Source: Candidatus Anderseniibacteriota bacterium (GTDB lineage: Bacteria; Patescibacteriota; Andersenbacteria; UBA10190). Taken from it: a stretch of 64,000 bases of DNA. Every line of letters starts with the position of its first letter. The first letter of the stretch is position 1. Below are positions 1,686-42,769 of the stretch, one piece after another. Under the pieces are notes generated by a model that saw only the letters and a list, made by a program, of their open reading frames with translations, ran no database searches and had not been told where the DNA came from. Both the position numbers and the translations under genes were made by a program. The DNA lies in NCBI GenBank assembly GCA_040900375.1, contig JBBDZC010000008.1, forward strand, positions 66,182-130,181, read 5' to 3'.

Positions 1686-1873
1686 ACACTTAAGCTCTGG
1701 ATAATGCTAAACAGTGGCCTCATAATACTTATTATTTTATTTTTGGTCAATTTATACACACTTTCTTATCATTATCCCCAACTTTTCCCCAAAAAAATGT
1801 TGATATTCCTGTATACACCTGTGGATAACTATGTTACGCTGGGGGGTGCTTTATAAAGACAGTAGGATTTTTC
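1686..1873. promoter_or_regulatory. rpmH-dnaA intergenic region with DnaA boxes (candidate oriC part or dnaA autoregulatory promoter)
   Basis: The region is AT-rich. It contains a perfect box, TGTGGATAA, at 1820-1828 and a one-mismatch box, TTATCCCCA, at 1772-1780. Confidence 0.5.
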
Positions 1874-3277
1874 ATGAATCAAGACCAATTATGGAAGGCA
1901 GCGCTTGGTCAACTTGAGCTACGGGTAAGCCAGGGTAATTTCTTAACGTGGTTTCGTGAGACAAAAATTAAAGAAATTAAATCAGGTACAGCACTGATTG
2001 AAACACCATCAGCCTTTGCTCATGAGTGGTTATCGCGCAAGTATCAACAACCGATTCTGGAAATTCTTCATGATTTAGATGGTGGCGTGCAGCACGTACA
2101 GTTTTGTATCCAGTCGCCTATTAAAATGCATAAGCCACTCAAAAAGAATTCTCGGATCCTCGTGCAGAAAAATCGTCCGGCTACTTTGCCCGATAGAATC
2201 CCAACACCCGTGTCCATGCCCGCCCCACCTACACCGACTCCTAACAGTAAATTTGCCAAGACGCTTAACCCCAAGTATACCTTCGAAACATTCGTGATTG
2301 GTCCTAATAACGAAGTGGCTCATGCTGCCTGTCGGGCCGCTGCCTCTAAGCCGGGCGAAGCCTATAATCCACTCTTTATCTACGGCGGGGTTGGTTTAGG
2401 TAAAACCCACCTTCTCCAAGCAGTAGGCAACGCCATTCTCAAAGAGAAGCCGGGAGCAAGGGTCCTTTATGTTTCTTCAGAAAAATTCATTAATGAGTTT
2501 GTTCAGTCTATCCGGGAACGCAATACACAGAAATTCAAGGAGTATTATCGGGATGTTGATGTTTTAATTATTGACGATGTGCAATTCCTCGCTGGTAAAG
2601 GCAAGACTCAAGAAGAGCTTTTTCATACTTTCAATAGTCTTCATAGCCAAAACCGGCAAATTATTTTAAGTAGCGATCGTTCTCCTAAAGCTATTGCTAC
2701 TTTAGAAGAACGGCTGCGCTCGCGACTAGCAGGGGGAATGCAAGTTGATATCCAACAACCGGATTACGAAACCCGGCTCGCAATTTTAGCAGAAAAAGCC
2801 GAGACTTCTCACGTAAAAATTGACCCCGAATCTCTCGCTTTTATTGCCAAAAATATTCAGAAGAATGTGCGGGAATTGGAAGGGGCTCTTAATCGAGTTA
2901 TTGCTCACTGTGAGCTTAATAATCGCCGGGCAACTTTGGAATATACTGAAAAGGTCTTAGAAGGAATCCTTGATCAACCACAACAACGTACTGTGGACTC
3001 TAAGAAAATCCTTGATGTGGTGAGTGTTTACTATAATTTATCCCTTGATGATTTGTGTGGAAAATGCCGCAAGCAGGAGATTGTTCGTCCTCGTCAAGTA
3101 GCAATGTATCTTCTCCGTAAAGAAAATAATGTTTCTTTTCCCTCGATTGGTGATCAATTTGGTGGGCGAGATCACACAACTGCCATGCATGCTTGTGAAA
3201 AAATACAGAAGCTTCTGGAGCATGACGAGGAGTTACTTCAGGATATTAATTTTATTCGTGAACGACTGTACGCTTAA
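1874..3277 (+). CDS. dnaA: Chromosomal replication initiator DnaA
   Basis: The 467 aa product has an AAA+ Walker A (GGVGLGKTHL) and a C-terminal DnaA-box-binding domain. Confidence 0.95.
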   Translation: MNQDQLWKAALGQLELRVSQGNFLTWFRETKIKEIKSGTALIETPSAFAHEWLSRKYQQPILEILHDLDGGVQHVQFCIQSPIKMHKPLKKNSRILVQKNRPATLPDRIPTPVSMPAPPTPTPNSKFAKTLNPKYTFETFVIGPNNEVAHAACRAAASKPGEAYNPLFIYGGVGLGKTHLLQAVGNAILKEKPGARVLYVSSEKFINEFVQSIRERNTQKFKEYYRDVDVLIIDDVQFLAGKGKTQEELFHTFNSLHSQNRQIILSSDRSPKAIATLEERLRSRLAGGMQVDIQQPDYETRLAILAEKAETSHVKIDPESLAFIAKNIQKNVRELEGALNRVIAHCELNNRRATLEYTEKVLEGILDQPQQRTVDSKKILDVVSVYYNLSLDDLCGKCRKQEIVRPRQVAMYLLRKENNVSFPSIGDQFGGRDHTTAMHACEKIQKLLEHDEELLQDINFIRERLYA

Positions 3278-6131: not shown

Positions 6132-8948
6132 CTATTCAATCGTAATGGTGTGGGCTTCTGTTTGGGTATTATTACCGGTTTTGTCGTAGGCAATGACGAA
6201 GATATAGTATGTACCCGGACCAGGGGAATCAGGCCAAATTACTTCATAGCGATTAGCGGCTGTGGCCGCGGTAGTGCTGGTACGACCAATACGATTAGTA
6301 GTTGTCTGTCCATCTTTCTGATAAAGAACATCTACGAGTTCAATACCGGAATCATCGGTGGCGGTTACCTTAATGGTCTGTGGAAAGTCAGGGGGACTTA
6401 ATTTTTCATTATTGCGGGGAGTGTGAAGCGTGACTCGCGGAGCACTGTCATCAGGATTAATGATGAAGGTTCGGTGGCCGCGGCCAATCAAGTTATTATC
6501 AGTGATAGCTTGAATGAGGAGAGTTTTGCGGCCCGTAAAGTTGCCCGGGAAGGAGAAAGCTGTCTCAAAGGGCTCATCACCGCGGCGGCGAGCAATCTCC
6601 TCACCCTCGAGGAGAAAACGGACTTCGCGGATGGGAAACTTTGAATCAACCTCCACTTTAACAACAACTGGACTACTTTTTAAAATCGAGGTATTGGGTT
6701 CAGTAATGCGCACAATTGGCAAATCAGCGCTACTGGTGATACCACAGGTGGGAGTGGGCAGTGAGCTCGTGTACCGCACCTCGGCCTTTTTCTGATTATG
6801 CTTGTCGCGCCAGGCAGCGACCGCTCCTTCCCAGCGACTAAATTGGGGATCGCTCTCGGCCCGGGCCGGTGGTGGACCTAGGGGCCTACCTTTATTGATA
6901 TAAAACAAAATGCTATGGAGTTCTTTAAAGGTCACCGGTTGGCCAACAGCGACGGGACAGTCAGCGGTGTAAAGGGTCTGGGTCTCTTCTTCCCATTTAC
7001 CTTTCACTTCGGGTAATTCTCCTCGTAAAATGCCGTGAGGAATATCGCGGGAGGGTTCAGGTCGAACAAACTGTTCAATAGCTTTACCAGTGAGAGCGCG
7101 GCGCATAAAAGCGTTCCATAAGGGGGCAGCCGTTAAGCCACTATCAGAGCGGTTGTTCATCGGAGAATTGTCATTGTTACCTACCCATACACCAGCCACG
7201 AGTGAAGGTGTGTAGCCTACGGTCCAACCGTCGCGGAATTCTTGGGTTGTACCTGTTTTAGCGGCCACGGGACGACTACCTAACTGCAAAGGGGTGTTGG
7301 TACCAAAGACAAGGGCGCGGGCGCCATTATCAGAGATGACATTTGTCACTAAACGGGCAATTTGCGCTTCGAGCACTTGCTCGCCGCGTGAGTCTTCATC
7401 TTTAACCTCAAAAATAACGTCAGCTTTATTTTCCACTTTAAGAATAGCGCGGTGGGGATGGCGAATGCCATCGTTAGCAAAGACACCGTAAGCCGAGACC
7501 TCATCCACTAAGCGCACTTCACCGCCGCCGAGCACTAAAGAAAGTCCGTAGCGGTCAGGATCAGACAGTGAGGTCATGCCCAAGCGCTGGGCGAGAGCGG
7601 TTGCTTGCCGGACGCCGACGAGGTAGAGCGTTTGGACGGCGGGAATATTGAGTGAGTTAGCTAATGCTTGCCGCATAGTTACGGGGCCATTCTCGCTTAA
7701 GTTGTAGTTGCGTGGTTTATAACCTTGGCCAAAATCTGTTTCTACATCAACGAGGATGGTCTCGGGGGTAAAACCCGCCTGCCAGGCAGCGGCGTACACC
7801 ACCGGCTTAATCGAAGAGCCCGGGGAACGATGGCGAATTGAGACGTTGACATTACCGTCAATTTCTTCGTTGAAGTAGTCAATCGAACCAGTCATCGCGA
7901 GAATGTTGCCGTTCTTAGGATCGATGGCGACTAAGGCGGCATTGGAAGCTCCGAGCTGGCGCAGTTGTTCTTGTCGCTCTTTAAGCACTTCCTCGGCAAT
8001 CTTTTGGAGCTCGATGTTGAGTGACGTAATCACCTTAAGGCCCCCTTGTTCCACGACGCGCTCGCCATACTCGGCGTCGAGCTGCTCTTTAACATAAAAG
8101 ACAAAATGGGGGGCTTGGATAGATTCTTGGCGAGGCACAAAGACGAGTTCTTCTTTCTTGGCCGCGTCTGCTTCTGCGCGGCTGATCATATTGAGGCCAG
8201 CCATGCGATCTAAAATCAGCTCTTGGCGTTGCTTAAGATCTTCCATGTGCGAGCCATACGGTGAGTAGTAAGTGGGTGCCTGGGGTAAGGCGGCCAGGGT
8301 TGTCGCCTGGGCCAGGCTGACCTCGCTTGCTGGTTTATCAAAAAATGCCTGCGCAGCTGCTTCAATCCCGTACGCTTGGCTGCCGTAAGGGATGTCATTG
8401 AGGTACATCTCAAAAATTTCATCTTTACTAAAGCGCTGTTCTAGCTCGAGGGCGAGCACGGCCTCTTTAACCTTACGGCGGAGCGTGCGTTCGGGGGTGA
8501 GAATAGAGTTTTTAATCAACTGTTGAGTGATAGTCGAGCCGCCTTGGATCCGGCGCCCGGTTAAGGGTTTGAGCACACCGCCGCGCAAAATTCCTTTGAG
8601 ATCAAGTCCGTAGTGTTCATAGAATTGATCATCTTCAGCCGCTAAAGTTGCTTGGCGAATGAAACGGGAAATTTGATCCAACCGCACAGTTGTGCGATGG
8701 ACGTCGCCAATTTCATAGAGAAGATGTTGCCCCGTGGCATCGAAAATTTTTGTCGACTCTGATACACGCCGGGCATCAATATTTTGGGGATTAGGTAGAT
8801 CTTTACTCCACCACAAGACCGTGCCGGCACCCATAAGAAAGAGAACACCGCCGATGGTGAGAAAGAGCGGTAAACCTCGGCGTCCCAAGAGAAGAGGAAG
8901 GGCACGCCAATGGAATTTAGATTGACGGGAAAAGCGCCGCTGGGCCAT
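6132..8948 (-). CDS. Class A penicillin-binding protein (transglycosylase plus transpeptidase) with a C-terminal extension of about 300 aa
   Basis: The product has an N-terminal TM anchor and a GT51 motif (AAEDDQFYEHYG). The transpeptidase motifs SSIK and KTGT are present. The extra C-terminal region is beta-rich. Confidence 0.9.
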   Translation of the reverse strand: MAQRRFSRQSKFHWRALPLLLGRRGLPLFLTIGGVLFLMGAGTVLWWSKDLPNPQNIDARRVSESTKIFDATGQHLLYEIGDVHRTTVRLDQISRFIRQATLAAEDDQFYEHYGLDLKGILRGGVLKPLTGRRIQGGSTITQQLIKNSILTPERTLRRKVKEAVLALELEQRFSKDEIFEMYLNDIPYGSQAYGIEAAAQAFFDKPASEVSLAQATTLAALPQAPTYYSPYGSHMEDLKQRQELILDRMAGLNMISRAEADAAKKEELVFVPRQESIQAPHFVFYVKEQLDAEYGERVVEQGGLKVITSLNIELQKIAEEVLKERQEQLRQLGASNAALVAIDPKNGNILAMTGSIDYFNEEIDGNVNVSIRHRSPGSSIKPVVYAAAWQAGFTPETILVDVETDFGQGYKPRNYNLSENGPVTMRQALANSLNIPAVQTLYLVGVRQATALAQRLGMTSLSDPDRYGLSLVLGGGEVRLVDEVSAYGVFANDGIRHPHRAILKVENKADVIFEVKDEDSRGEQVLEAQIARLVTNVISDNGARALVFGTNTPLQLGSRPVAAKTGTTQEFRDGWTVGYTPSLVAGVWVGNNDNSPMNNRSDSGLTAAPLWNAFMRRALTGKAIEQFVRPEPSRDIPHGILRGELPEVKGKWEEETQTLYTADCPVAVGQPVTFKELHSILFYINKGRPLGPPPARAESDPQFSRWEGAVAAWRDKHNQKKAEVRYTSSLPTPTCGITSSADLPIVRITEPNTSILKSSPVVVKVEVDSKFPIREVRFLLEGEEIARRRGDEPFETAFSFPGNFTGRKTLLIQAITDNNLIGRGHRTFIINPDDSAPRVTLHTPRNNEKLSPPDFPQTIKVTATDDSGIELVDVLYQKDGQTTTNRIGRTSTTAATAANRYEVIWPDSPGPGTYYIFVIAYDKTGNNTQTEAHTITIE

Positions 8949-9024: not shown

Positions 9025-9033
9025 TTATCCACA
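9025..9033 (+). promoter_or_regulatory. Perfect DnaA-box 9-mer (TTATCCACA) upstream of the PBP gene
   Basis: The 9-mer is an exact match to the consensus. It lies in the intergenic region about 77 nt upstream of the PBP start codon. Confidence 0.4.
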
Positions 9034-15421: not shown

Positions 15422-15443
15422 TTATCCACATCCCTGTGGATAA
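15422..15443. promoter_or_regulatory. Inverted pair of perfect DnaA-box 9-mers (TTATCCACA tccc TGTGGATAA)
   Basis: Both 9-mers match the consensus exactly and are separated by 4 nt. They lie 70-150 nt upstream of the LTD/PKD surface-protein gene. Confidence 0.45.
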
Positions 15444-15585
15444 TATTTCTGCGCTATTGACCCCATAGTGATATAGTTAGGAGTAGTTAAAAAACAAACA
15501 TTCAAGTATAAATATGTGGCGAGGTAATCGGTTATTGCGAAGATGCCGGTTAGGGAGGCTCACGGTACAACACTGCCCTAGTTTG

Positions 15586-17550
15586 ATGTTTCGATACGGC
15601 CCGAGTGCCGTATTTTTGTTGCTTGTAGTTTTTGCGCCGGCAGTCCGCGCGGCTGGTACTGGCCCCGTCATTATTAATGAGATTATGTGGGATGGAGTTG
15701 AGTATCTTGAGCTCTTTAATATCACGACTGCCGATATTGTTCTGGCGGGGTGGTCACTCCAACGTCAGCAGCCAGGCGGCGTGCCCAAGACAATTGTGAA
15801 TTTTCCCGCTGGTAGTGTCATCAGCGCCCAGGGGTATTACCTCATCGAGAAACAGGAAGCGGCAACACTGGCAGCGGCTGATCTTGTCGTGCCGGGATTG
15901 ACGCTGCTCAACGCTGGCGAACTGGTAACGCTCCTCCAGGCAGAGGGTAGCACTGTTGATGTTGCTAATCAGCTTGGCAGTTGGTTCGCGGGGGAAAACA
16001 ACGACACGGGCACGGCCATGGAGCGGTCTCGCGCTGCCGACGGCACCGTGGCCGATAACTGGCATACCTCTACTGCCAGTGGTGAACGCGGGGGGACACC
16101 GCGGGCGTCTAATAGTATACCGGTAGTCAATACCGCCCCCACGGCTGTTATTACGGCAGCGGCAACTGGCTTCGTTGGAGAATCTTTAAACTTCTCCGCT
16201 GAAGATTCCAGTGATCCTGAAGCCGATGAGCTTACCTATGACTGGTCGTGGGATGATGGTACTACGGATACGGGAGCCACAGTAATGCACGTGTTCAGCC
16301 AGGCAGGAACTTACACTATCCGGCTCACTGTCAGCGATGGAACAGAAGAAGATGAAGCAGTGCAGAATGTTGTGATTACCACCCCGGTCTATCCCGACAC
16401 GATTGTCATTAATGAATTTTTGCCCAATCCGGTAGGCGCTGATACCGCCGGCGAGTTCATCGAGCTTAAAAATATCGGCTCGGCTGCGGTGGTCCTGGCA
16501 GGCTGGCAACTTGACGATGCCGTCGGCGGCAGTTCAACCTTTACCATCGGTGCGGGCACGAGCTTGGGTGCGGGCGCTATTATTTCGTTGGCGCGGACGG
16601 AGACTAACCTGGCGCTCAACAACACCCAGGATACCGTTCGCCTACTTGATCCTGCGGGAGTAGTTAAATCTTCCTTTACTTACACGAGTGCGCCTGAAGG
16701 GCAGTCATATAATCACACAGGAGTAACATATAGTTTGAGTACCACGGTGACACCCGGACAAGAAAATCGCGTGACGGTCCCGGTAGAGAGTGATGATGAA
16801 GAAGAGGCAGAAGAAGCGGAAGATGGTGACAATCCGGCAGTGGCTGGCCGGGTGGCGGGTGCGGCCGTGAAGACGGTCGCGCTTGCGGATGTGCGCGAGG
16901 AAGAGCCCGGTACGTTGGTGCAGACAGAAGGCGTGGTCAGCGCGCCGCCGGGGATCGTGGGTGCTAAGCTCTTGTACTTAGCAGGCTCGGGTATCCAGGT
17001 CTATTTCACAGCCGGTGATGTACTGGCACTCAAGCTGGGCGATCGAGTAAAACTTACGGGGAGCCTTAGCTCCTACCAGGAGGAGACACGACTGAAAGTC
17101 GCCGGGACAGATATTACGAAAGTACATAGTGGGGAGCCACCGCTACCGCATCAGTTCGAAACGGGCGCGATCGATGAAGCGGCGGAGGGATCCCTGGTGA
17201 TTATCCAAGGCCACGTCACCGAAACTAGCGGTGATACCTTTTATGTTGACGATGGCAGTGGCGAAGTCAAAATTTTCATTCCTAAGACAACGAAAATTGA
17301 TAAGCCACCAATGAAACAGGGAATGGCAGTAACAATTACCGGTGTCGTTTCCCAAACGCGATCAGGCTACCGCATCTTGCCGCGTTTTCAAGAAGATATT
17401 CGGCTTGGTTTAGTGGCGGGGCTGACGACCTTTCCCGCTACTGGTCGGATACCGGCGGGTATGTTGGGCTTGGGCGTTGTTATCTTTTACCTGCTGCAAC
17501 AAGCCCAGCGAGCGCGGGAACCGCTCCTGCCGCGAAGCAGGATTGCGTAA
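15586..17550 (+). CDS. Secreted or membrane-anchored protein with two lamin-tail domains and a PKD domain
   Basis: The product has a signal peptide. Two LTD-like segments are present (VIINEIMWDG…ELFN and IVINEFLPNPVGADTAGEFIELKN), plus a PKD motif (WSWDDGTTDTGATVMHVFSQAGTYTIRLTVSDG) and a C-terminal TM anchor. The ORF track start at 15514 lacks a signal peptide. Confidence 0.7.
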   Translation: MFRYGPSAVFLLLVVFAPAVRAAGTGPVIINEIMWDGVEYLELFNITTADIVLAGWSLQRQQPGGVPKTIVNFPAGSVISAQGYYLIEKQEAATLAAADLVVPGLTLLNAGELVTLLQAEGSTVDVANQLGSWFAGENNDTGTAMERSRAADGTVADNWHTSTASGERGGTPRASNSIPVVNTAPTAVITAAATGFVGESLNFSAEDSSDPEADELTYDWSWDDGTTDTGATVMHVFSQAGTYTIRLTVSDGTEEDEAVQNVVITTPVYPDTIVINEFLPNPVGADTAGEFIELKNIGSAAVVLAGWQLDDAVGGSSTFTIGAGTSLGAGAIISLARTETNLALNNTQDTVRLLDPAGVVKSSFTYTSAPEGQSYNHTGVTYSLSTTVTPGQENRVTVPVESDDEEEAEEAEDGDNPAVAGRVAGAAVKTVALADVREEEPGTLVQTEGVVSAPPGIVGAKLLYLAGSGIQVYFTAGDVLALKLGDRVKLTGSLSSYQEETRLKVAGTDITKVHSGEPPLPHQFETGAIDEAAEGSLVIIQGHVTETSGDTFYVDDGSGEVKIFIPKTTKIDKPPMKQGMAVTITGVVSQTRSGYRILPRFQEDIRLGLVAGLTTFPATGRIPAGMLGLGVVIFYLLQQAQRAREPLLPRSRIA

Positions 17551-17611
17551 GCGGCGGCAAGTCCTCTAGCTTCACATTATATCGCGTTCTTCTCTATACT
17601 GACTGCAATCT

Positions 17612-18658
17612 ATGACTGCGGGTAAAAAAACTGCACTAGCGAAGCCACGAGTGGTGGTCTTGGGTGGCGGCAACGGTACCTCGCGCCTATTGCGGGCCTT
17701 GTTGCCGCGTCTTAATCAGGGCGAATTGGAGTCGCTCTACGCCTTGATTCATATGTCTGACGATGGGGGTTCTACGGGCCGGTTGCGGGAACAGTACGGC
17801 GTGGCGGCTATGGGTGATTTAACGCGGTGTCTGATGGCCTTGAGTACTTTTCAGGGAGACATACGTGGTGATGAATTTTTGCGGGCGCTGGAGTATCGCT
17901 TTACCGCCGGAGATTTTACGGGGCATACACTGCGTAATATTTTTTTAACGGCGCTGGCAATGACGAGTGATATTGATACGGCGCTGGCGACTATGGCGCG
18001 TATTTTACAGGTGCCTAAGTACGCCGGGGCGGTGCCAACCACGCTGACAACCTTAACAGCACAAGCAGTGATTACCTTCGATGGGGCGTCTAATCTCCTG
18101 GGGGAAGGTGAGTACTCAATCGCGCACAAGGTTAACATGCAAGCTGACCCGCGCTGGCAGCCCGGCGCGGTTAAAGTTCAATTTGCTGAAGGTGATGTGC
18201 CGCTCAATCCGCGCGCCGCGGAAATTTTGCGCCACGCGACGCACATTATTGTTGCCCCTGGTCATACCTATGGCACCATCTTACCGACTTTGGCTCTGCC
18301 CGCCTTGCAACGCGCAATTACTGACAGCCCGGCGAAAATCTACGTGGTGATGACGCTCTTGACGACACCGCGGCAGACGGTCGGGTGGAGTGGTGAAGAT
18401 TTTGTGCGGGTTTATGAGTCATACTTAGGGCGGGCCGTCACCGCCGTGATTGCTAACCGCGGCGAGGCCCCGGTTAAACTAGTAGCCGGCCAAGAATGGG
18501 TGACGTTCAAAGAACAAGAACATCCCTATCAACTGCTCCAGGCAGCGGTGGTTAATACGCTGACGCCAACGGAGCAGCCAGGTGACCGGGTGCCGCGGGC
18601 TATAGTTGTCCACGACAGTGCCAAAATTGGCACGCTCTTGGCGCAACTTTTGCAGTAA
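17612..18658 (+). CDS. YvcK/CofD-family (UPF0052) gluconeogenesis-factor-like protein
   Basis: The product contains VVLGGGNGTS…MSDDGGSTGRLR, the YvcK/CofD signature. Confidence 0.8.
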   Translation: MTAGKKTALAKPRVVVLGGGNGTSRLLRALLPRLNQGELESLYALIHMSDDGGSTGRLREQYGVAAMGDLTRCLMALSTFQGDIRGDEFLRALEYRFTAGDFTGHTLRNIFLTALAMTSDIDTALATMARILQVPKYAGAVPTTLTTLTAQAVITFDGASNLLGEGEYSIAHKVNMQADPRWQPGAVKVQFAEGDVPLNPRAAEILRHATHIIVAPGHTYGTILPTLALPALQRAITDSPAKIYVVMTLLTTPRQTVGWSGEDFVRVYESYLGRAVTAVIANRGEAPVKLVAGQEWVTFKEQEHPYQLLQAAVVNTLTPTEQPGDRVPRAIVVHDSAKIGTLLAQLLQ

Positions 18659-18752
18659 TTGCAATTCTGTCAGGCGGCTGCAGAAATGAGTATAGTATAG
18701 GGAGGCGCTTACTGACCGGAAGCGTCAGTTAATCCTTCGTGGGGCTGCCACT

Positions 18753-20432
18753 ATGCCGCGGAAAAAAGATGAGGAAAAAGAAATCAAGCAAGACATCAAA
18801 GCGCGCATGGTGGTGCTCTCGGGTGAGCAAGAAGAGCGCATCGCGCGCCGCCGGGCCGAGACTTTAAACTTGCCCTACATTAGCCTTCAAACTTTCCCAA
18901 CTGATGCAGATGTTTTGGAACTCATCCCGCGCCACTTAGCCGAACAAGCCCACGCTGTCTTATTCCACAAACAAGGGAAAGATGTCCGGGTGGGGGTAGT
19001 TAACCCCTCCCTACCAGCCTTTGCCAAATTTCGCCAGGCTGTCACCAACACGGTGGGCGTTGAACCCCAGCCCTACGTGATCTCCCATCGCAGCTTACAG
19101 GTAGCCCTCTCCCGCTACCGCCGCGAACAGCGCGTGGAGGTGACTCCCCAAGATGAAATGCGCATTACCAGCGAGAGCCTAAGCGCTTTTACCAAGACTA
19201 TCCGCGATCTCCACACTCTCGGGCAGCATATTACGACACTGCCGCCGACGGAGGTATTGGCGACGGTAGTCTCGGGAGCGGTTAAGCTCGGGGCGTCGGA
19301 TGTGCATATTGAACCAAAAGAAAAAGAAGCCCGCTTGCGCTACCGCATTGATGGGGTGTTGCAAGATATAACCGAGTTTGCATTGCCAGGTTGGCAGTTG
19401 TTGCTCTCGCGCGTCAAGGTGCTGGCGAAGCTCAAGCTCAATGTTCACGAGACGCCCCAAGACGGCAGCTTCGTGCTGCGGGTGGGTGAGGCTACGTATG
19501 ATATGCGCGTATCTATCTTGCCGGGTGACTTTGGCGAGAATATTGTCATGCGTATCTTGAACCGCGCGGCGGAAGCGGTGCGGATTACTGACCTCGGCAT
19601 GAAGGAACGTGACTACGCTGTAGTGTTGCGAGAACTGCGTCGGAGTAACGGCATGATTTTAACTACTGGCCCCACCGGCTCCGGCAAAACGACGAGCCTG
19701 GCGTCATTTTTGCGTGAGGTTAATACTCCCGAGTTGAAAATTATCACGCTGGAAGATCCCATTGAGTACCGTCTGTCTGGAGTGGAGCAGACACAGGTGG
19801 ATACCGATGCTGGCTATACTTTTGCCAAAGGGTTACGGGCGATCTTACGCCAAGACCCCGACGTTATTATGGTGGGGGAGATGCGCGATACCGAAACGGC
19901 GGAGACAGCTATGCACGCCGCGCTCACCGGCCACCTGGTCTTTTCCACGTTGCACACCAATGATGCCCCGGGCGCCATCCCGCGTCTCATTGACATGGGT
20001 ATCAAGCCCTTTATTATTGCGCCGGCCGTCAACCTGGTGATTGCGCAGCGCTTGGTACGCGTTGTCTGCAAAAAATGCGCGAAAAAGTATACGCCGGATC
20101 GCGCCATACGCGAGCAAATTGCGGCGGCGATGGAAGGTGTGCGGCGAGAGATTTTTGATCCGCAGGTGGTGCATGACCCCAAGCTTAAACTTGTGCGGGC
20201 GCAGGGCTGCGATCACTGCGCGCAAACCGGCTACAAGGGTAGGCAAGGTGTTTTTGAAATCTTCACTGTCACCGGGGCCATTGAAGAACTGGTACTTAAA
20301 GGCGCGGACAGCAACGCTATTCGAGACGCCGCGCAGAGAGCCGGCATGACGACGATTGCCCAAGACGCCTATCTGAAAGTGCTCGACGGTATAACTACCG
20401 TAGAAGAAGTAGAGCGGATTTCAGAGGAGTAA
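18753..20432 (+). CDS. pilB: Type IV pilus / type II secretion assembly ATPase (PilB/GspE family)
   Basis: The product has an N-terminal GspE_N domain and a Walker A (GPTGSGKTT). A tetracysteine motif is present (CKKCAKKY…CDHCAQTGYKGR). Confidence 0.85.
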   Translation: MPRKKDEEKEIKQDIKARMVVLSGEQEERIARRRAETLNLPYISLQTFPTDADVLELIPRHLAEQAHAVLFHKQGKDVRVGVVNPSLPAFAKFRQAVTNTVGVEPQPYVISHRSLQVALSRYRREQRVEVTPQDEMRITSESLSAFTKTIRDLHTLGQHITTLPPTEVLATVVSGAVKLGASDVHIEPKEKEARLRYRIDGVLQDITEFALPGWQLLLSRVKVLAKLKLNVHETPQDGSFVLRVGEATYDMRVSILPGDFGENIVMRILNRAAEAVRITDLGMKERDYAVVLRELRRSNGMILTTGPTGSGKTTSLASFLREVNTPELKIITLEDPIEYRLSGVEQTQVDTDAGYTFAKGLRAILRQDPDVIMVGEMRDTETAETAMHAALTGHLVFSTLHTNDAPGAIPRLIDMGIKPFIIAPAVNLVIAQRLVRVVCKKCAKKYTPDRAIREQIAAAMEGVRREIFDPQVVHDPKLKLVRAQGCDHCAQTGYKGRQGVFEIFTVTGAIEELVLKGADSNAIRDAAQRAGMTTIAQDAYLKVLDGITTVEEVERISEE

Positions 20433-37183: not shown

Positions 37184-37597
37184 GTGAGTGTAATGCTACA
37201 AAAATTAGCAATGATTCTTGGGGTAGTGCTCCTGGCTCTTGGTATCCTGGGGTATGTGCCCGGAATCACCACTGATGGCATGCTCTTAGGTATCTTTGCC
37301 GTTAACGGACCGCTTAACGTGATTTACTTGATCACTGGTGCCGCTGCCCTCTGGGGGAGCCGATCCAACCTCAAGAATGCGAAGATGTCTCTCCAGGTCT
37401 TGGGCGTAGTCTATGCACTGTTGGCAGTGCTGGGCATCTTCAACATTGAAGGACCGCTCTTAGGGATGCTGGCCCACAACATGGCAGACTTAGTACTCCA
37501 CGTGGTGCTGGCGGCGGTGGCCTTATATGCCGGCTTTGGCATGAAGGCAGCAATGTCGCCCGGGATGAGTTCGAGTCAGACGCCACCCATGGCATAA
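37184..37597 (+). CDS. DUF4383-family small membrane protein
   Basis: The 137 aa product has four TM segments and a DUF4383-like pattern (…LLGIFAVNGPLN…). It has a strong ribosome-binding site (GAGGAGGTG). Confidence 0.65.
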   Translation: MSVMLQKLAMILGVVLLALGILGYVPGITTDGMLLGIFAVNGPLNVIYLITGAAALWGSRSNLKNAKMSLQVLGVVYALLAVLGIFNIEGPLLGMLAHNMADLVLHVVLAAVALYAGFGMKAAMSPGMSSSQTPPMA

Positions 37598-37623: not shown

Positions 37624-37653
37624 AGAGAGCCTCATGAAGTCATGAGGCTCTCT
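37624..37653 (+). terminator. Strong hairpin (14-bp perfect stem) downstream of the DUF4383 gene; no U-tract
   Basis: The stem is AGAGAGCCTCATGA..TCATGAGGCTCTCT. Confidence 0.3.
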
Positions 37654-37735
37654 GCAGTGGTGGTGCGGATAACTCCCTTGCGTCGGTGAAGTACTCCTGT
37701 ACAGTAAACAATATGTTGAAAGGGGGTGACGACGC

Positions 37736-38362
37736 ATGTCGTTCAAGAATGTAGTGCAATTGTTGTTGCTCGGAACTGTGACGCTTAGCCTGGTTGCAGT
37801 TATCACCCCGAGCGCGGCGGCTTCGCATATTGATTGGGAACAACGTCGCGCACAGCGGGAAGCGGAGCGGGAGGCGCGGCGCCTGGCGCGCGAGAACCCG
37901 AGCCCGACGTGCCGGTGTTCAGCCAGCTTGGGCTTGGCGCGGCCGAGTCTGCAGTTTACTAGTGGCGGGGGCTTAACTTTGACGCCCCGGGTTGATGTCA
38001 GTATTCGCACACGCGGTGATCACGAGGCGCCACCGTGGGTGGCCGAGTTGGCATATAGCGGCACGACCGAGTATGAGTCGGATGATGTGAGTGTGCCGGC
38101 GGGAGTGGCATTTAGCGGGACACAGCAGGTAGCGGCCGGATCATGCGGTGATACGTATACTTTCCGCGGACTGGCGTTACCAGATGTCAGCCTCACTGGC
38201 TTGATCCGCTCCCTGGTGGGTGTAGATCAAGAACTTGAAGGAACGGTGCGGCTGCACGCGACGCTCAATAGCTGCGAGCTGGATGAGGAGCAGCGTCAGT
38301 TTAGCTTCCGGGTACAGGAGTTTGGGAATCTGAAGATAGGCGGGTGGCGGTCGGCGCGGTAA
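37736..38362 (+). CDS. Hypothetical secreted protein
   Basis: The product has a signal peptide (…LVAVITPSAAAS). I recognise no domain. I chose it over the overlapping minus-strand ORF. Confidence 0.45.
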   Translation: MSFKNVVQLLLLGTVTLSLVAVITPSAAASHIDWEQRRAQREAEREARRLARENPSPTCRCSASLGLARPSLQFTSGGGLTLTPRVDVSIRTRGDHEAPPWVAELAYSGTTEYESDDVSVPAGVAFSGTQQVAAGSCGDTYTFRGLALPDVSLTGLIRSLVGVDQELEGTVRLHATLNSCELDEEQRQFSFRVQEFGNLKIGGWRSAR

Positions 38363-38389: not shown

Positions 38390-38413
38390 TTATCCACAGA
38401 AATCTGTGGATAA
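38390..38413. promoter_or_regulatory. Inverted pair of perfect DnaA-box 9-mers (TTATCCACA gaaatc TGTGGATAA)
   Basis: Both 9-mers match the consensus exactly and are separated by 6 nt. They lie about 220 nt upstream of the repeat-protein gene. Confidence 0.45.
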
Positions 38414-38632
38414 CCATCCTTGCAGGGGGAAGAAGTTGTGGTACGAAGGATACAGGTCGAAAACGTGTTGATTTAGGGGGAGCCAACCTAAGAGGACACG
38501 ATTTCTAAGGAGGGGGACCATTTGATCTTATTGATTACCAAGATCGGTGGAAGAGAATCGTGTTTTTTGTTTATCCGCTTTCACACACAAAACTCGCATG
38601 CACCATGAAGCTATGAGAGGAGGTGAGTACAG

Positions 38633-39748
38633 ATGAAGAATACATTTCGCGCACTCTTTGGCGTATCTGCACTCGCACTCTTACTAGTTGCCGCTCCTGT
38701 GTTGGCAGCAGAAGTAGATGTGACTGCCGAGAACGTCATGACGGGAGCTGATTCTGACAACAACAACGACACTGATGTTGACAACGACTTAGATGTTAAT
38801 GTTGACAACGTTGGCAATGTGAGCAACTCTGCCAGCGCGGCCGTAACCACGGGCAACAATGAGCAGAACGAAAACACCGAAGGCGGTGACGTGGACTCTG
38901 GCGCGGTTGATGCCTCCACTGACTGGGAGAGCATCGTCAATGCCGGGGCGGCTTTGTTGGACAATGGGGATGGCCTAGAAGTGTCTGCTGATTTCAGCAA
39001 CGACACAACGGGCGCTGATTCCGACAACGATAATGATCTCGATGTAGATCATGATGTTGATCTGGACTTACGCAACATCGCTAATATTCTGAACTACTTA
39101 GCATTGTCTGCCAACACTGGCGACAACGAGCAGAACAAGAATACAATGGGCGGCGAGCTCACGACGGGTGATGTAACTGTTGATTCAATGATTGCCAATT
39201 TGGCAAACAATGGCGCCGGTTACGCTAGCCTTGGCACCACCCAGGTGGATGTCAGCGGCAGCAATCACCTCACGGGAGCTGATTCTAACAACAACAACGA
39301 TGTTGATGTTGACAACGACTATGATCTTGATGTTGACAATACTGCCAACCTCACGACAAGCGTTGTGATTAATGCCCATACGGGCGGCAACGAGCAGAAT
39401 CGCAACACTCAGGGCGGCTCTATGACTACGGGCAATGTGGAAGTTTCAACGAAAGTTGAAAACTCTGCTAACAACAATTCCAGCATTGGGATTGGTGGCT
39501 CAAGTCTCGCCGTCACGGTAGAGGCTTCCAATGACACAACCGGTGCTGATTCCGACAATGATAATGATGTAGACGTTGATAACAACGTTGACATCGATGT
39601 CGACAATACCGCTAATGTCTCGAATAATCTGACCGTAAGCGCCAACACTGGCGACAACGAGCAGAACAAGAACACCCAAGGCGGTGGTGTTGAGACTGGT
39701 TCAGTCTCCATCAACTTTGAGGCGTTCAACGAAGTCAACAGCAATTAA
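38633..39748 (+). CDS. Secreted Asp/Asn-rich protein made of four tandem repeats of about 90 aa (unclassified repeat family)
   Basis: The product has a signal peptide (…APVLA|AE). Each repeat reads TGADSDN(D/N)ND-(D/V)x-acidic DxDxD run …NTG(D/G)NEQN(K/R)NT(Q/M)GG…TG(D/N)V. It has a strong ribosome-binding site. Confidence 0.7.
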   Translation: MKNTFRALFGVSALALLLVAAPVLAAEVDVTAENVMTGADSDNNNDTDVDNDLDVNVDNVGNVSNSASAAVTTGNNEQNENTEGGDVDSGAVDASTDWESIVNAGAALLDNGDGLEVSADFSNDTTGADSDNDNDLDVDHDVDLDLRNIANILNYLALSANTGDNEQNKNTMGGELTTGDVTVDSMIANLANNGAGYASLGTTQVDVSGSNHLTGADSNNNNDVDVDNDYDLDVDNTANLTTSVVINAHTGGNEQNRNTQGGSMTTGNVEVSTKVENSANNNSSIGIGGSSLAVTVEASNDTTGADSDNDNDVDVDNNVDIDVDNTANVSNNLTVSANTGDNEQNKNTQGGGVETGSVSINFEAFNEVNSN

Positions 39749-39772
39749 TTTGTCTGTTTGATTTTTGTGCAA

Positions 39773-39796
39773 GGGGGATAAGTTTTGGCTTATCCC
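39773..39796. promoter_or_regulatory. Inverted TTATCC-type pair (GGGGGATAAG ttttgg CTTATCCC) upstream of the large repeat-protein gene
   Basis: I read this directly. It lies about 35-55 nt upstream of the 39830 start. Confidence 0.35.
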
Positions 39797-39829
39797 TCTC
39801 CATGAGCATCATTTAACGTTAGGACTTTT

Positions 39830-42769
39830 ATGAACAATCGTTTGCGCCGCAGTCTGACAAGGATTAAGAAGAGCCTGGTACTCGGAGTAATAGTCTGGTT
39901 GAGCGTGGTAACCCCAGCGGTGACTTTTGCGCAAAGCGTGGATGCAACGGAGGAAACCGCCAGTGCGACTGAATGTACCGGGGCCGGTTGCGGCCAGGGC
40001 AGTGATCAGGGAGTGGATCAGGGAAGTGGCCAGGGTGGCCTGTCGGCCGAGGATCTCGGAGCTGATGAAACGGGTGAATTGCCGGAAGGGGTCATCGATA
40101 CCCGCCAGGGCGCCAGCCAGGGCTCGACTAATGGCGTCACGGCAGCCAACACGAACACTGGTACGAATTCGACAAACACAGCCGGCGTGACAGCGACTAA
40201 TAGTACCACGACTGGTATTGCGAACACGGCTCTGGATACCACGAATGCCGCCGCGACGGGAACAACTGGCGGCAACACGAGTAGTAACAACACGGGGGGC
40301 ACCGGGATTATCACGGGTTCAGCCGGGATTGGTGTTACCCAAGTTAAAAATGATAATACCGCCACGGTGAACGGCACCGCTGGTTTACAGGTAGAAGGCC
40401 ACAACGGCAATTACGTGGGTGATTTGAACTTAGGTTTTGGGGCGGGGACAGCTAATTTATCAGGCGGCAGTTCAATCCGCGCGGTCAATGAGGCGACGGG
40501 GGCGGGCTCAACTAATAACGTGGGCATTGCCACGCGGACAGAAGAGCTCAATGAGGTGCAAAACGATGGGCGGATTGATAATATCTTGGATTTAGCGGCG
40601 ATTACGGGACAAAATGTGGCGAATAAGAATACGGGGGATGCAGTGATCACCACGGGTGATGCAAATGTGGCAGCGACTCTTGTTAATTTGTTAAATACAA
40701 CGGTGATTAATGGCGACTTGTGGATTACGGTGGCAGACATTTTTGGCAACCTCGAAGGCAACATTAATCTGCCTGACTTCTCGAGCTGGGTCGCGGCGCA
40801 TCTCCTGGGGATTGAGGTGGCGAATGAAAACACTGGGACAAACTCAACCAATGCGATTGCGGTTGATGTGTCAGATCGCGCGACCACGACGATTGATAAT
40901 GACGCTGATATTACCACGACGGTAAATGCGGAGGCTGTTACTGGACAAAACGAAACGATGGCTAATACCGGCGGAGCCGAGGTTACCACGGGCGATGCCC
41001 AAGTTTCAGCGGGTGCTATTTCGATCGCCAATACCACCGTAGAAGGCGGCAACTGGGGTTTGGTGATTGTCAACGCGCTCAATCGCTGGCTCGGGTTTTT
41101 AGTGGGCGATAGCGGCGAAGTCCGCGCTTTATCGCAAGACGAGACGTTGCATGAGATTGCCGCGCGTAATACTAATACGGGGGCGGATTCTGATAACACG
41201 ATTGGGGTGGAGGTAGAACGAGAACGTACCACGACGGTTGCCAACGACGCGGTGATTAATAACGAGATCAACGCGCAGGCGATTACTGGCCAGAATGAGG
41301 CGAATAAGAATACGGGTGGGGCGCAGATTGCTACCGGGGATGCCAATGTGCAGGCCACGACGGTGAATATTGCTAATACGACCGTTAAGGACGGCTCACT
41401 CTTTATTGCCGTCGTTAACATTTTTGGCGACTGGCTTGGTGATCTCTTCTATGGCGGCAGCGCTCTGGGCACGACCGCGACTGGGCCCGCGAGTGTGGTG
41501 GTGGCCGAGGCGCGCAGTAGCGAGACGGGGGCGGACTCGGCTAATACCATTGATATCAACTACGATCGCCACCAGGAGACAACCATTGATAATGAAGCTG
41601 ATTTGGCCACGACCCTGAATGCCACGATTGATACAGGCAGCAACCGGGCCAGCCGTAACACCGGCGGGGCGCTGATTGATACGGGGGATGGGGCCCTGGC
41701 GCTGCATGCACGCTCGGCCGCCAACTTGACGGGTATCGCGGGCGCGGCGGGCGTGGGTATCGCGATCCAGGGTTTAAACGAGACGACGGGCGCTAATTCC
41801 CAGAATCGGATCCGGGCGCACATTAATGATGAGCATATTATGACAATTAATAACGACGCTAATGTGAGTACTGTCATTGGTGATCGTCAGGTGCCGGCGA
41901 TGGTTAATACGGGCAATAATGTCGCGAACCAGAATACTCTCGGGGCGATGATTATGACCGGTGATATTGCGGCCGAGGTGGCGATCCATAACCTGGTCAA
42001 TCAAGTCTTGGTTGCTTTAACCGGGCAGGGCATTGTTGTTGACGCCGATTTTGCCAATCGTCTTACGGGGGCGTTGTCGACGAATAGTAATGAGCTGACG
42101 GTTGAACAACAGGCACTGCTGGCAGTGCTCAATCGCGGCCTCGTTGATAATATTATTAACTTGCTCCTGAATACCGGTGGCAATACGGCGAATGAAAACA
42201 CCGGCGGCGGGGCAATTTCAACAGGTGACATTTGTGTTGAGGGTGTGGTGAAAAATGTGGTTAATGACGTGAGCGCCACGGGCGTGGGCGGAGCCTCGCT
42301 TGATCTTGATCAGGAGGCTCATCTGCACACCGCTGCCCAGCTCGGTGCGACCACCGGAAACAACGAGGCTCATCGCAATACGGGCAAGCAGCAGGTGACT
42401 GATGCGGAAGGTATCTGTCCCAAGCTCGCTGTGGTAGTCACCCCGTCACCATCGCCATCACCAACTCCCGCCCCGGAAGAAGGTCAAGGCGGCGGTGAGG
42501 AAGCGGGCGCAGAGGCACATGACGAGGAAGAAGCCCCGGCAGCCGCGGGTGGGGCCGCGGAAGCAGAACCAAGAGTTGCCGCAGCGGTAGAGATGCCACC
42601 CGTAGCCGAGCGGATCTTGCGTCGTTTCCCGGTGGCGGGCGGAGAACAAGCCGCCATGATTTTGCAAGGCAAAAAGCGTCTACCGTGGCCTTTCTTTGTG
42701 GCCATGAGCCTGCTGTTAGTGGGTACAGCGTGGCGCTTTGATATTCGTGCCCGTGCGGCACAGCGGTAG
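39830..42769 (+). CDS. Large secreted surface protein (979 aa) with about 10 copies of the same ~75 aa repeat, a Pro/Ser linker and a C-terminal hydrophobic anchor
   Basis: The product has a signal peptide (…AVTFA|QS). Repeats recur as …A(I/V)TGQNExxxNTGGAx(I/V)xTGDAxVxAxxVNxxNTTV…. The C-terminus reads …TPSPSPSPTPAPEE… then an acidic Ala-rich stretch, WPFFVAMSLLLVGTAW and RFDIRARAAQR. Confidence 0.75.
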   Translation: MNNRLRRSLTRIKKSLVLGVIVWLSVVTPAVTFAQSVDATEETASATECTGAGCGQGSDQGVDQGSGQGGLSAEDLGADETGELPEGVIDTRQGASQGSTNGVTAANTNTGTNSTNTAGVTATNSTTTGIANTALDTTNAAATGTTGGNTSSNNTGGTGIITGSAGIGVTQVKNDNTATVNGTAGLQVEGHNGNYVGDLNLGFGAGTANLSGGSSIRAVNEATGAGSTNNVGIATRTEELNEVQNDGRIDNILDLAAITGQNVANKNTGDAVITTGDANVAATLVNLLNTTVINGDLWITVADIFGNLEGNINLPDFSSWVAAHLLGIEVANENTGTNSTNAIAVDVSDRATTTIDNDADITTTVNAEAVTGQNETMANTGGAEVTTGDAQVSAGAISIANTTVEGGNWGLVIVNALNRWLGFLVGDSGEVRALSQDETLHEIAARNTNTGADSDNTIGVEVERERTTTVANDAVINNEINAQAITGQNEANKNTGGAQIATGDANVQATTVNIANTTVKDGSLFIAVVNIFGDWLGDLFYGGSALGTTATGPASVVVAEARSSETGADSANTIDINYDRHQETTIDNEADLATTLNATIDTGSNRASRNTGGALIDTGDGALALHARSAANLTGIAGAAGVGIAIQGLNETTGANSQNRIRAHINDEHIMTINNDANVSTVIGDRQVPAMVNTGNNVANQNTLGAMIMTGDIAAEVAIHNLVNQVLVALTGQGIVVDADFANRLTGALSTNSNELTVEQQALLAVLNRGLVDNIINLLLNTGGNTANENTGGGAISTGDICVEGVVKNVVNDVSATGVGGASLDLDQEAHLHTAAQLGATTGNNEAHRNTGKQQVTDAEGICPKLAVVVTPSPSPSPTPAPEEGQGGGEEAGAEAHDEEEAPAAAGGAAEAEPRVAAAVEMPPVAERILRRFPVAGGEQAAMILQGKKRLPWPFFVAMSLLLVGTAWRFDIRARAAQR

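Follow-up and report, generated by a model that had tools for sequence, protein, structure and literature searches.

The question raised by this locus is what reads a set of exact DnaA boxes that lie away from the origin, and what they do there. CPR/Patescibacteria have tiny genomes with few recognisable regulators, and we know of no member of the group with a mapped regulon. The window analysed here is a stretch of 64,000 nucleotides from a MAG of an uncultured groundwater bacterium, Candidatus Andersenbacteria (CPR/Patescibacteria), and comprises its dnaA/oriC region. A preliminary description of the window had noted inverted pairs of DnaA boxes upstream of genes for cell-surface proteins, and suggested that expression of these proteins is coupled to replication.

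The 9-mer TTATCCACA occurs exactly six times in the window, at 1820(-), 9025(+), 15422(+), 15435(-), 38390(+) and 38405(-). In 100 dinucleotide shuffles the mean count was 0.35 and the maximum 2, and none of the 100 reached six. This agrees with the preliminary description, which had found at least six copies by eye and expected about 0.5. All six are intergenic, as had also been claimed. The relaxed consensus TTWTNCACA has 12 matches in the window, 8 of them in intergenic DNA, which accounts for 8.9% of its length. The two head-to-head pairs described earlier are read directly from the sequence, with spacer TCCC (4 nt) at 15.4 kb and GAAATC (6 nt) at 38.4 kb. The latter pair can alternatively be read as perfect 11-nt arms, GTTATCCACAG-AAAT-CTGTGGATAAC. 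The boxes had been placed outside the origin, and this is so for five of them; the box at 1820 belongs to the origin/dnaA-promoter region, the spacer between rpmH and dnaA. The non-origin sites are 5.7, 12.1 and 35.1 kb past the end of dnaA on a single replichore, the 15.4-kb and 38.4-kb pairs being 13.6 and 36.5 kb from dnaA on that same replichore. The sign of the GC skew is constant across the window.

The preliminary description had allowed that the 9-mer might be a common dispersed repeat, in which case the pattern would be coincidence. This explanation is ruled out, since the flanks around the six boxes are unrelated (14–23 of 60 positions identical) and coding DNA contains few copies of the 9-mer. 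The intergenic DNA of 34 non-redundant related loci, 54 kb in all, has 27 copies of TTATCCACA, where control 9-mers of the same composition average 0.44 and reach at most 7, although this enrichment is biased upward by the way in which the loci were gathered, around box-bearing genes. The 478 kb of coding DNA in these loci contains 6 copies, compared with 3.0 on average for the controls.

The presumed reader of the boxes is encoded by dnaA itself (1874..3277, + strand), a protein of 467 aa with the Pfam domains Bac_DnaA, Bac_DnaA_C and DnaA_N. Alignment to solved DnaA chains indicates that the base-contact motifs of domain IV are all kept, as RPRQ, sfPsig, grDHTt and amHa. In these, RPRQ, P, DHT and H presumably correspond to R399, P423, D433-T435 and H439 of E. 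coli (PDB 1J1V numbering). The box nearest to dnaA (1820..1828, - strand) reads cTGTGGATAAc toward the gene, 45 nt before the dnaA ATG and 21–23 nt before a -10-like TTTATA/TATAAA. Boxes with one mismatch lie in the same rpmH-dnaA spacer (1696..1780), namely TTATCCAGA at 1696, TTATACACA at 1752 and TTATCCCCA at 1772, and judged by its sequence this is an origin/dnaA-promoter box cluster. L145-L147 have equivalent clusters, and boxes occur in the dnaA-dnaN spacers as well. The proximal box is kept 27–55 nt upstream of dnaA in L145, L146 and L147, and the dnaA promoter has a box in 4/4 genomes. The 11-mer cTGTGGATAAc at the dnaA promoter of the four genomes is that of R1 in E. coli oriC.

The pair at 38.4 kb stands in front of an operon for repeat proteins. 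Its proximal box (38405..38413, - strand) reads TGTGGATAA toward the gene, and is an invariant TGTGGAWAA in 7/7 orthologous loci. It is always 4–6 nt upstream of a conserved -35-like CTTGCRG, again in 7/7 loci. The distal box, TTATCCACA (38390..38398, + strand), has an inverted equivalent in 6/7 orthologous loci, with spacers between the two boxes of 5, 5, 6, 6, 6 and 16 nt, the last being that of L142. The promoter of L143 has a single box. In L139 (TTTTCCACC) and L140 (GTTTCCACA) the distal box has a neighbour 3 nt away in the same orientation, which makes three boxes. The candidate promoter (38420..38447, + strand) consists of a -35-like TTGCAG (38420-38425), a 16-nt spacer and a -10-like TACGAA (38442-38447), the hexamers being conserved blocks in the alignment of the seven loci. 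Downstream of it is a long, conserved 5' leader (38448..38632, + strand), which has an invariant GGAGGGGGACC at 38509-38519 and a strong Shine-Dalgarno sequence, GGAGGTGA, before the ATG of the first gene. An Rfam scan of the window gave no match, and the leader thus does not belong to a known RNA family.

A related arrangement is seen at the preceding gene, which encodes a secreted protein of 208 aa (37736-38362). Here a one-mismatch box, TGCGGATAA (37664..37672, - strand), is positioned 4 nt upstream of a -35-like CTTGCG and 72 nt before the ATG. At the orthologous promoters an exact TTATCCACA is found 8–9 nt upstream of CTTGCR in L142 and L143, and is absent in L138-L140.

The pair at 15.4 kb consists of a distal box, TTATCCACA (15422..15430, + strand), and a proximal box (15435..15443, - strand), which again reads TGTGGATAA toward the gene and is 28 nt upstream of the -10 hexamer. 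The candidate promoter (15449..15477, + strand) has a -35-like CTGCGC (15449-15454), a 17-nt spacer and an extended -10, TGaTATAGT (15469-15477). A strict sigma-70 scan called neither this promoter nor that of the repeat operon, and at both of them the -35 and -10 assignments are suggested by conservation. The distance from box to -10 is 28 nt at both promoters of the window. The gene (15514..17550, + strand) encodes a secreted LTD-PKD-LTD-OB-fold protein with a C-terminal anchor, in which Pfam identifies LTD, PKD and tRNA_anti-codon OB-fold domains. The NCBI annotation starts it at 15586, 24 codons after the ORF start at 15514. The protein is 100% identical to P0001, from an Andersenbacteria MAG. 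The gene adjoins that of a PilB-like ATPase.

Among 22 distinct orthologous promoters of the LTD gene, TGTGGA[T/A]AA is found 73–123 nt before the start codon in 13. From this box to a conserved extended -10 (aGTGnTAnnnT) is 27–30 nt, except for 38 nt in L091, which is one helical turn more. L001, L007 and L084 likewise have an inverted distal box, with N2 spacers, and in L003 and L082 the sole box retained is that at the distal (15422) position. The box is absent in 9/22 orthologs. These include two genomes which have the dnaA locus and retain the repeat-operon pair, and the three sites therefore do not always occur together.

The genes downstream of the boxes had been described as those of an LTD/PKD protein, two repeat proteins and a class A PBP, and Pfam and the translations bear this out. 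The PBP gene (6132-8948, - strand; Pfam Transgly and Transpeptidase) has a single exact box 76 nt upstream of it (9025..9033, + strand), which reads ggcTGTGGATAAct toward the gene. However, this box is specific to the window genome: among 13 orthologous upstream regions it occurs in one, and it is missing at up to one mismatch from the other 12. The PBP, which had been listed among the targets, is consequently rejected as a conserved member of a regulon. The expectation that homologous promoters keep the boxes is thus borne out for the repeat-protein operon (7/7) and in part for the LTD/PKD gene (13/22), but not for the PBP (1/13). A polysaccharide-cluster gene of L145-L147 is a further candidate for the regulon.

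The TTATCC-type repeat at 39773-39796, which had been taken as a third pair, is also something different. It is a genuine inverted repeat, GGGGGATAAG/CTTATCCCTC, but its arms differ from the DnaA box at 3/9 positions. It forms an intercistronic RNA hairpin, AGGGGGAUAAGU / GCUUAUCCCUCU (39772..39799, + strand), which folds at -23.3 kcal/mol (z = -4.7). The hairpin is kept in L140 and replaced in L138 by a different G/C-rich hairpin, while in L139 the genes overlap and there is none. For these reasons it is rejected as a DnaA site, which leaves the second repeat protein without a box of its own.

The variation of the boxes between genomes is informative. In the orthologs the only variants are A3->T (TTTTCCACA) and C5->A or T (TTATACACA, TTATTCACA). 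They all fit TTWTNCACA, the DnaA-box consensus cited in PMC12371093, so that the variation observed is the variation that DnaA tolerates. The shift between A3 and T3 was considered as a test of co-variation with DnaA between lineages, and was dropped since L146 and L147 each contain both forms. Pair spacers are 2, 2, 2 and 4 nt for the LTD gene and, as listed above, range up to 16 nt for the repeat-protein operon, and single boxes are also conserved in orthologous promoters. Together these observations point to recognition of the monomer type. They support the earlier argument that variable spacing speaks against a repressor of fixed dimeric geometry, given that spacers range from 2 to 16 nt and lone half-sites are retained.

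On the basis of these observations, we consider it likely, though with some reservation, that the DnaA encoded in this genome binds the exact 9-mers with high affinity and uses them as operators at the promoters of surface genes. DnaA binding, and the change in transcription resulting from it, are deduced here from the DNA. In the mechanism that we propose, DnaA would bind the proximal box TGTGGATAA, which is centred near -46, immediately 5' of the -35 region, with 28 nt between its end and the -10. Transcription would start near 15484 and 38454. The inverted second box, 4–6 nt farther upstream and centred near -60, would accept a second DnaA protomer. Occupancy of the boxes would follow the level of free, active DnaA, and transcription of the surface proteins would thereby be coupled to the cycle of replication initiation. 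The dnaA gene would be autoregulated through the same box, placed nearer to its -10. The LTD and repeat-protein genes are thus probably tied to the replication cycle. As to the sign of regulation, activation is slightly favoured over repression, because the boxes are upstream of the core promoter rather than over it and the core hexamers (TTGCAG / TACGAA) are weak.

Known targets of DnaA regulons include dnaA (by autoregulation), nrdAB, sda, gcrA and others. Such regulons are centred on nucleotide synthesis, replication, repair or cell-cycle regulators, whereas the boxes described here precede genes for surface-anchored or secreted repeat proteins and for an LTD/PKD/OB-fold protein. In other respects the arrangement is much like that of the regulons of E. 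coli, B. subtilis and Caulobacter: consensus 9-mers are found at promoters outside oriC, the identical box is present at the dnaA promoter, high-affinity boxes here have the flanks of E. coli R1 (cTGTGGATAAc), and the set of targets is small, as in a compact regulon (PMC11317965). That DnaA serves E. coli as a transcription factor, with a regulon of compact size, is established (PMC11317965). A further difference is that the pairs here are inverted, with spacers of 4–6 nt, while E. coli DnaA prefers tandem double boxes 2–3 bp apart (PMC11317965).

Operators of this kind would extend a known type of regulation, that by DnaA, to a lineage in which gene control is almost unknown. What would be new is that the promoters of the main secreted repeat proteins, and that of the LTD/PKD/OB-fold protein, share a DnaA-box module which is phylogenetically conserved. 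The literature searched yielded no account of DnaA regulons in CPR. The module would be a concrete case of cell-cycle-linked gene control in the CPR radiation, and points to the replication initiator as being also one of the few global regulators there. The comparison also supplies a promoter anatomy for a lineage whose promoters are undefined, in the form of the -35-like CTTGCRG, the extended -10 and the leader motifs. Moreover, the pairs are natural convergent DnaA-box pairs from outside the Proteobacteria, and should be useful for asking whether head-to-head DnaA dimers are general.

The alternative that survives best, to which we assign a minor but appreciable probability, is that DnaA does bind the sites but that they mainly control DnaA itself, any effect on transcription being secondary; the two roles may coexist. 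This could happen in two ways. The first is titration, by origin-proximal sites like datA of E. coli or the DnaA-box clusters (DBCs) of B. subtilis. However, datA and the DBCs have about five or more boxes per cluster, and the non-origin sites here have one or two boxes each (at up to one mismatch), far below such numbers. The likeness is that these are also high-affinity boxes outside oriC yet near it. In E. coli, DnaA boxes are more frequent close to oriC (PMC12371093), and an origin-proximal arrangement is the one favoured for titration (PMC12371093; PMC3245932); some B. subtilis DBCs in addition regulate adjacent genes (PMC3245932).

The second way is that of DARS, where DnaA dimerises head to head on convergent boxes, gives up its ADP and is returned to the ATP-bound form. 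Convergent pairs with spacers of about 5 bp are the DARS signature, regulating DnaA and not a neighbouring gene, and the core common to DARS1 and DARS2 is a convergent TTATCCAC(A/T)-N5-TGTGGATAA (PMC6868365). In NC_000913.3 the E. coli DARS1 core reads TTATCCACT-attcc-TGTGGATAA-cca-TGTGTATTA, with boxes I and II separated by N5. The pairs of the window (N4, N6) and of the orthologs (N5, N5, N6, N6) match this orientation and approximate spacer, and they are intergenic and promoter-adjacent, as is DARS1 in the bioD-uvrB spacer. In addition, the third box of L139 and L140 completes the DARS layout I-5-II-3-III if one follows the opposite strand. It is confined to these two relatives: the window pairs, with spacers of 4 and 6 nt and not 5, have no tandem box III, and a -35-like element is found in its place. 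The N2 spacers of the LTD pairs and the N16 of L142 are outliers, and many LTD orthologs, like L143, make do with one box. The best-conserved trait, and the constraint which differs from DARS, is the distance of the proximal box from the -35 and -10, which neither titration nor DARS requires. Finally, the window DnaA has Asn (FINEFV), as in B. subtilis, where the alignment places Gln208 of E. coli (FVQDMV), a residue which we take to be needed for DARS activity and for the head-to-head interface. To our knowledge DARS is documented only in E. coli and its close relatives.

One could also combine the two roles in a single element. In this more adventurous and rather improbable scheme, a head-to-head DnaA dimer on TTATCCACA-N4-6-TGTGGATAA would be the counterpart of the DARS core, recycling ADP-DnaA to ATP-DnaA and, from its place just upstream of the -35, also switching the promoter of the major surface-protein operon. 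A DARS-like pair of this kind would link reactivation of the initiator to production of the envelope or surface. It might even be tied, via the LTD/OB-fold protein encoded next to the PilB-like ATPase, to the scavenging of external DNA; CPR are not known to make nucleotides.

A regulator other than DnaA might read TGTGGAWAA, its identity with the DnaA box being due to coincidence or competition. We regard this as improbable. The arms of several pairs are good palindromes, as in the operators of dimeric regulators, and in both L138 and L001 the same A3->T change has occurred in both arms. The location just upstream of the -35 is also that of an inverted repeat in CRP/FNR-type operators (TGTGA-N6-TCACA), in an activator-like class I/II position. 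In contrast to CRP, the half-sites here are everted (CCACA...TGTGG), and with their variable spacers and conserved single boxes they are a poor fit to a rigid dimer. Furthermore, the same 11-mer is found at the dnaA promoter and in the origin spacers of four genomes, the permitted variation follows the DnaA consensus position by position, and no gene for a regulator accompanies the sites in any locus examined.

It is very improbable that the inverted pairs are RNA hairpins, acting as terminators or stabilisers at the 3' ends of the pgsA-like and 208-aa genes, with the boxes incidental: each pair does start 28–35 nt past the stop codon of that co-directional gene (the range over both pairs), and stems of 10–11 bp can form, at -16.4 kcal/mol (z = -2.2) and -24.4 kcal/mol (z = -4.2), with pairing preserved by the changes to both arms in L138 and L001, but there is no T-run after the stems on the + strand as in intrinsic (Rho-independent) terminators, the terminator scan calls nothing at either site, 2-nt spacers are too short for a loop and that of L142 is 16 nt, most LTD orthologs and L143 have a lone box which could form no hairpin, and the sequence of the arms, beyond their pairing, is kept even though the adjacent proteins are only 50–65% identical, which is the opposite of the behaviour of the true hairpin at 39772-39799, whose stem sequence is replaced in L138.

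The products of the repeat operon deserve brief mention. The first gene downstream of the pair (38633..39748, + strand) encodes a secreted protein of 371 aa with four repeats of about 90 aa, presumed to be a surface or fibre subunit. It has no Pfam hits. Its AlphaFold model consists of four long β-hairpin repeats (pLDDT 77.5), and comparison of the model with the PDB gave no significant match, the best being the functional amyloids FapC and CsgA (E = 0.06-0.1, TM <0.1). There are about 190 homologs, mostly of about 375 aa. The second gene (39830..42769, + strand) is translated as a repeat protein of 979 aa, also with no Pfam hits, which has a signal peptide and a C-terminal membrane anchor. 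It is probably co-transcribed with the first gene and driven by the 38.4-kb promoter. The gene order, in which the 371-aa protein is followed by proteins of about 1000 aa and about 300 aa, is kept in L138-L143.

The DnaA-box 9-mer TTATCCACA occurs exactly six times in the window, at 1820(-), 9025(+), 15422(+), 15435(-), 38390(+) and 38405(-), in agreement with a preliminary description of this DNA made by eye. This is far beyond chance: in 100 dinucleotide-preserving shuffles of the window, the mean was 0.35 and the maximum 2. As was also claimed, all six are intergenic, as are eight of the 12 matches to the looser TTWTNCACA, while intergenic DNA makes up 8.9% of the window (this share and the placement of the boxes being taken from a hand-curated gene list). 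Four of the boxes form the two convergent pairs described earlier, TTATCCACA...TGTGGATAA, with spacers of 4 nt (TCCC, 15.4-kb pair) and 6 nt (GAAATC, 38.4-kb pair). The 38.4-kb pair also forms a perfect inverted repeat with arms of 11 nt, GTTATCCACAG-AAAT-CTGTGGATAAC, nested in a longer imperfect one. The six boxes have unrelated flanks (14–23 of 60 positions identical), and a dispersed repeat is therefore ruled out as their origin.

The 9025 box is upstream of a class A penicillin-binding protein (PBP) gene (6132–8948, minus strand), the 15422/15435 pair is upstream of a gene for a secreted LTD-PKD-LTD-OB-fold protein (the LTD gene, 15514–17550), and the 38390/38405 pair is upstream of the gene for a secreted 371-aa four-repeat protein (38633–39748), which is followed by that for a 979-aa anchored repeat protein (39830–42769). 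At these three sites, and at the 1820 box before dnaA, the gene-proximal box reads TGTGGATAA in the direction of the gene.

The window begins at the replication origin region, with yidC, rnpA, rpmH, dnaA (1874–3277) and dnaN, and its GC skew has a single sign throughout. Its encoded proteins match those of a Candidatus Andersenbacteria MAG at 100% identity. The boxes had been described as lying outside the origin, which is true of five of them; the 1820 box shares the rpmH–dnaA spacer with three boxes of one mismatch, and is therefore the expected origin/dnaA-promoter box. In the three related dnaA loci compared (L145–L147, two of them on the same contigs as repeat-operon loci L140 and L142), cTGTGGATAAc is kept 27–55 nt before the dnaA ATG every time, with additional boxes upstream of dnaA and in the dnaA–dnaN spacer. 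The dnaA box is 21–23 nt from the -10 and overlies the -35 region, which is the classical layout for autorepression.

The frequency of the 9-mer in intergenic and coding DNA, singled out as a check in the preliminary description, was compared over 34 non-redundant loci of the lineage, which crude ORF calling divided into 54 kb of intergenic and 478 kb of coding DNA. There were 27 intergenic copies of TTATCCACA against a control mean of 0.44 (none of 1500 controls reached 27), and 6 coding copies against 3.0; for TTTTCCACA the counts were 12 against 0.45 and 10 against 3.2, the fold values being upper estimates because box-bearing genes were the starting point for choosing the loci. Despite this bias, TTATCCACA is plainly an uncommon 9-mer in the genome.

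For the repeat-protein operon, six orthologous loci (L138–L143, found via homologs of the 371-aa protein) were compared with the window. The proximal box is kept in all seven, each time 4–6 nt upstream of a conserved CTTGCRG. The pair reads TTATCCACA-N6-TGTGGATAA in the window and L141, the same with N5 in L139 and L140 and with N16 in L142, and TTTTCCACA-N6-TGTGGAAAA in L138, while L143 has the proximal box alone. The invariant blocks of the seven-way alignment are the proximal box, a -35-like CTTG, a -10-like TA..AA 16–17 nt on, AGGTC, and GGAGGGGG.CC in the leader. From the end of the proximal box to the hexamer TACGAA is 28 nt in the window (6 + 6 + 16), and the distance is equal at the LTD promoter (5 + 6 + 17). 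Just upstream, the promoter of a gene for a 208-aa secreted protein has a box of one mismatch, TGCGGATAA (37664–37672), 4 nt before a -35-like CTTGCG. Its orthologs have an exact TTATCCACA 8–9 nt before CTTGCR in L142 and L143, and no box in L138–L140. This promoter may belong to the same box-bearing set.

LTD loci (79 metagenome and 58 genome loci) were fetched via homologs of the LTD protein. The gene order PBP, ATP-grasp and, further on, ruvB, pgsA, LTD, cofD-like and pilB-like is kept in Andersenbacteria relatives. TGTGGA[T/A]AA or its complement is found 73–123 nt before the start codon in 13 of 22 distinct orthologous promoters, and is absent from the other nine, L149 and L150 among them. 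Four of the 13 have inverted pairs (N4 in the window; N2 in L001, L007 and L084). Where present, the proximal box ends 27–30 nt short of an extended -10 (aGTGnTAnnnT) that is itself conserved; in L091 it is a helical turn further away, at 38 nt.

The other two proposed targets fared differently. No box at ≤1 mismatch is present in any of 12 orthologous PBP promoters, and the 9025 box is therefore specific to this genome. A third inverted pair had been proposed near 39773–39796, between the 371-aa and 979-aa genes. This is rejected as a pair of DnaA boxes: it is a strong RNA hairpin (39772–39799, -23.3 kcal/mol), kept in L140, replaced by a different G/C-rich hairpin in L138, and absent in L139, where the genes overlap. 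Its probable role is to set the ratio of the two proteins, as an attenuator or a processing site. Conservation at orthologous promoters thus supports a reading of the boxes as DnaA operators at the repeat operon (7/7), the LTD gene (13/22) and dnaA, but not at the PBP gene or the third pair.

The form of the box also points to DnaA. Its flanks (cTGTGGATAAc) are identical to those of E. coli oriC R1, and domain IV of this DnaA retains the base-contacting residues of the E. coli complex. At orthologous positions the box varies by A3 to T and at position 5, and it is precisely these positions that are degenerate in the DnaA-box consensus TTWTNCACA, as quoted in PMC12371093. The A3 and T3 forms occur together within one genome, so there is no lineage shift in box form.

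The main rival is that the pairs are DnaA-reactivating sequences (DARS). They share the orientation and nearly the spacing of the E. coli DARS1 core (MG1655 genome), TTATCCACT-N5-TGTGGATAA-N3-TGTGTATTA, and L139 and L140 have a third box at 3 nt; however, the third box is missing from the window pairs, whose spacers are 4 and 6 nt, this DnaA has Asn in place of Gln208, and it is the distance from promoter elements that conservation constrains. Titration of DnaA close to the origin (PMC12371093; PMC3245932) is possible, although two boxes per site is few. The promoter-operator, DARS and titration roles are not mutually exclusive. It is unlikely that the pairs act as RNA hairpins, since no U-tract follows them, the arm sequence is conserved rather than the pairing, single boxes are unable to fold, and the true hairpin at 39772–39799 behaves differently in the relatives. 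A rigid dimeric regulator is ruled out because the spacers range from 2 to 16 nt and single boxes are conserved, which bears out the earlier argument from variable spacing.

Most likely, occupancy of DnaA boxes couples surface-protein transcription to the amount of active DnaA. DnaA would occupy the proximal box, centred at about -46, and also the inverted distal box where present, at about -60, and would thus stand just upstream of core promoter elements that are weak. We favour activation at the surface-gene promoters, because the boxes are placed upstream and the hexamers are weak. DnaA is already known as a transcription factor; the novelty lies in the lineage, the targets and the convergent-pair layout, and the literature searched contained no description of a DnaA regulon for CPR bacteria.

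The predicted structure of the 371-aa protein (pLDDT 77.5) comprises four repeats of very long, ~30-residue β-hairpins. A PDB fold search with this model gave no significant match, and its very weak top hits were FapC and CsgA, which are functional amyloids. Members of this family, which lacks a Pfam domain, are widespread in CPR. Neighbouring genes in the window and relatives encode a TasA/camelysin-like Peptidase_M73, a signal peptidase, a CAP-domain protein and a subtilase, and this is a secreted-structure neighbourhood. The gene is preceded by a conserved 5′ leader of ~185 nt (38448–38632), with an invariant GGAGGGGGACC at 38509–38519 and, shared by most orthologs, a possible CGTGT/ACACG stem; it has no Rfam family match and may be an undescribed leader RNA element. 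Further upstream, a perfect 14-bp inverted repeat with a 2-nt gap, AGAGAGCCTCATGA/TCATGAGGCTCTCT (37624–37653), just past a DUF4383 gene (37184–37597), is probably a terminator-type hairpin.

The LTD protein contains lamin-tail, PKD and OB-fold domains, and downstream of its gene come a CofD/YvcK-like gene and one for a PilB-like type II/IV secretion ATPase (15514–20432), an order kept in relatives. Extracellular nucleases such as ExeM contain lamin-tail domains (PMC6085458), and ComEA-type helix-hairpin-helix domains are present in more distant relatives of the LTD protein (P0119, P0120). Binding of external DNA by the LTD protein is a lead, not a finding. Some relatives (P0096, P0099, P0104) are pgsA-LTD fusions. 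An A/C-rich motif, AAAACAAACA (15489–15500 in the window), is found 10–25 nt before the LTD start codon and is conserved in the leaders of L001, L002, L003, L005, L007, L081, L083, L085 and L092; these leaders and that of the window have no Shine-Dalgarno sequence, in contrast to the strong GGAGGTGA at the repeat-protein gene. L083, L084, L085, L088–L091 and L094 are GTDB genome records titled 'uncultured Candidatus Saccharibacteria bacterium'. They share the gene order of the window, their proteins are 50–78% identical to its Andersenbacteria proteins, and the titles look like misassignments.

Other boxes were seen. TTTTCCACA at 60083–60091 is 90 nt upstream of the rpoB start (60173–63475; Pfam RNA_pol_Rpb2 domains), in the opposite orientation to the other gene-proximal boxes. 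An exact TGTGGATAA is 2 nt before the ruvB start codon in L146 (17341–17349, equivalent to L149 2466–2474); the window has no box before ruvB. Upstream of yidC-rnpA, boxes in L145 (5196–5204, TGTGGAAAA), L146 (1557–1577, two copies of TGTGGAAAA) and L147 (5929–5937, TGTGGATAA) are 0–13 nt from the start codon of a 276–284 aa gene, which sits in an origin-adjacent Wzy/glycosyltransferase/polysaccharide-flippase cluster and is possibly another envelope-related candidate target of DnaA.
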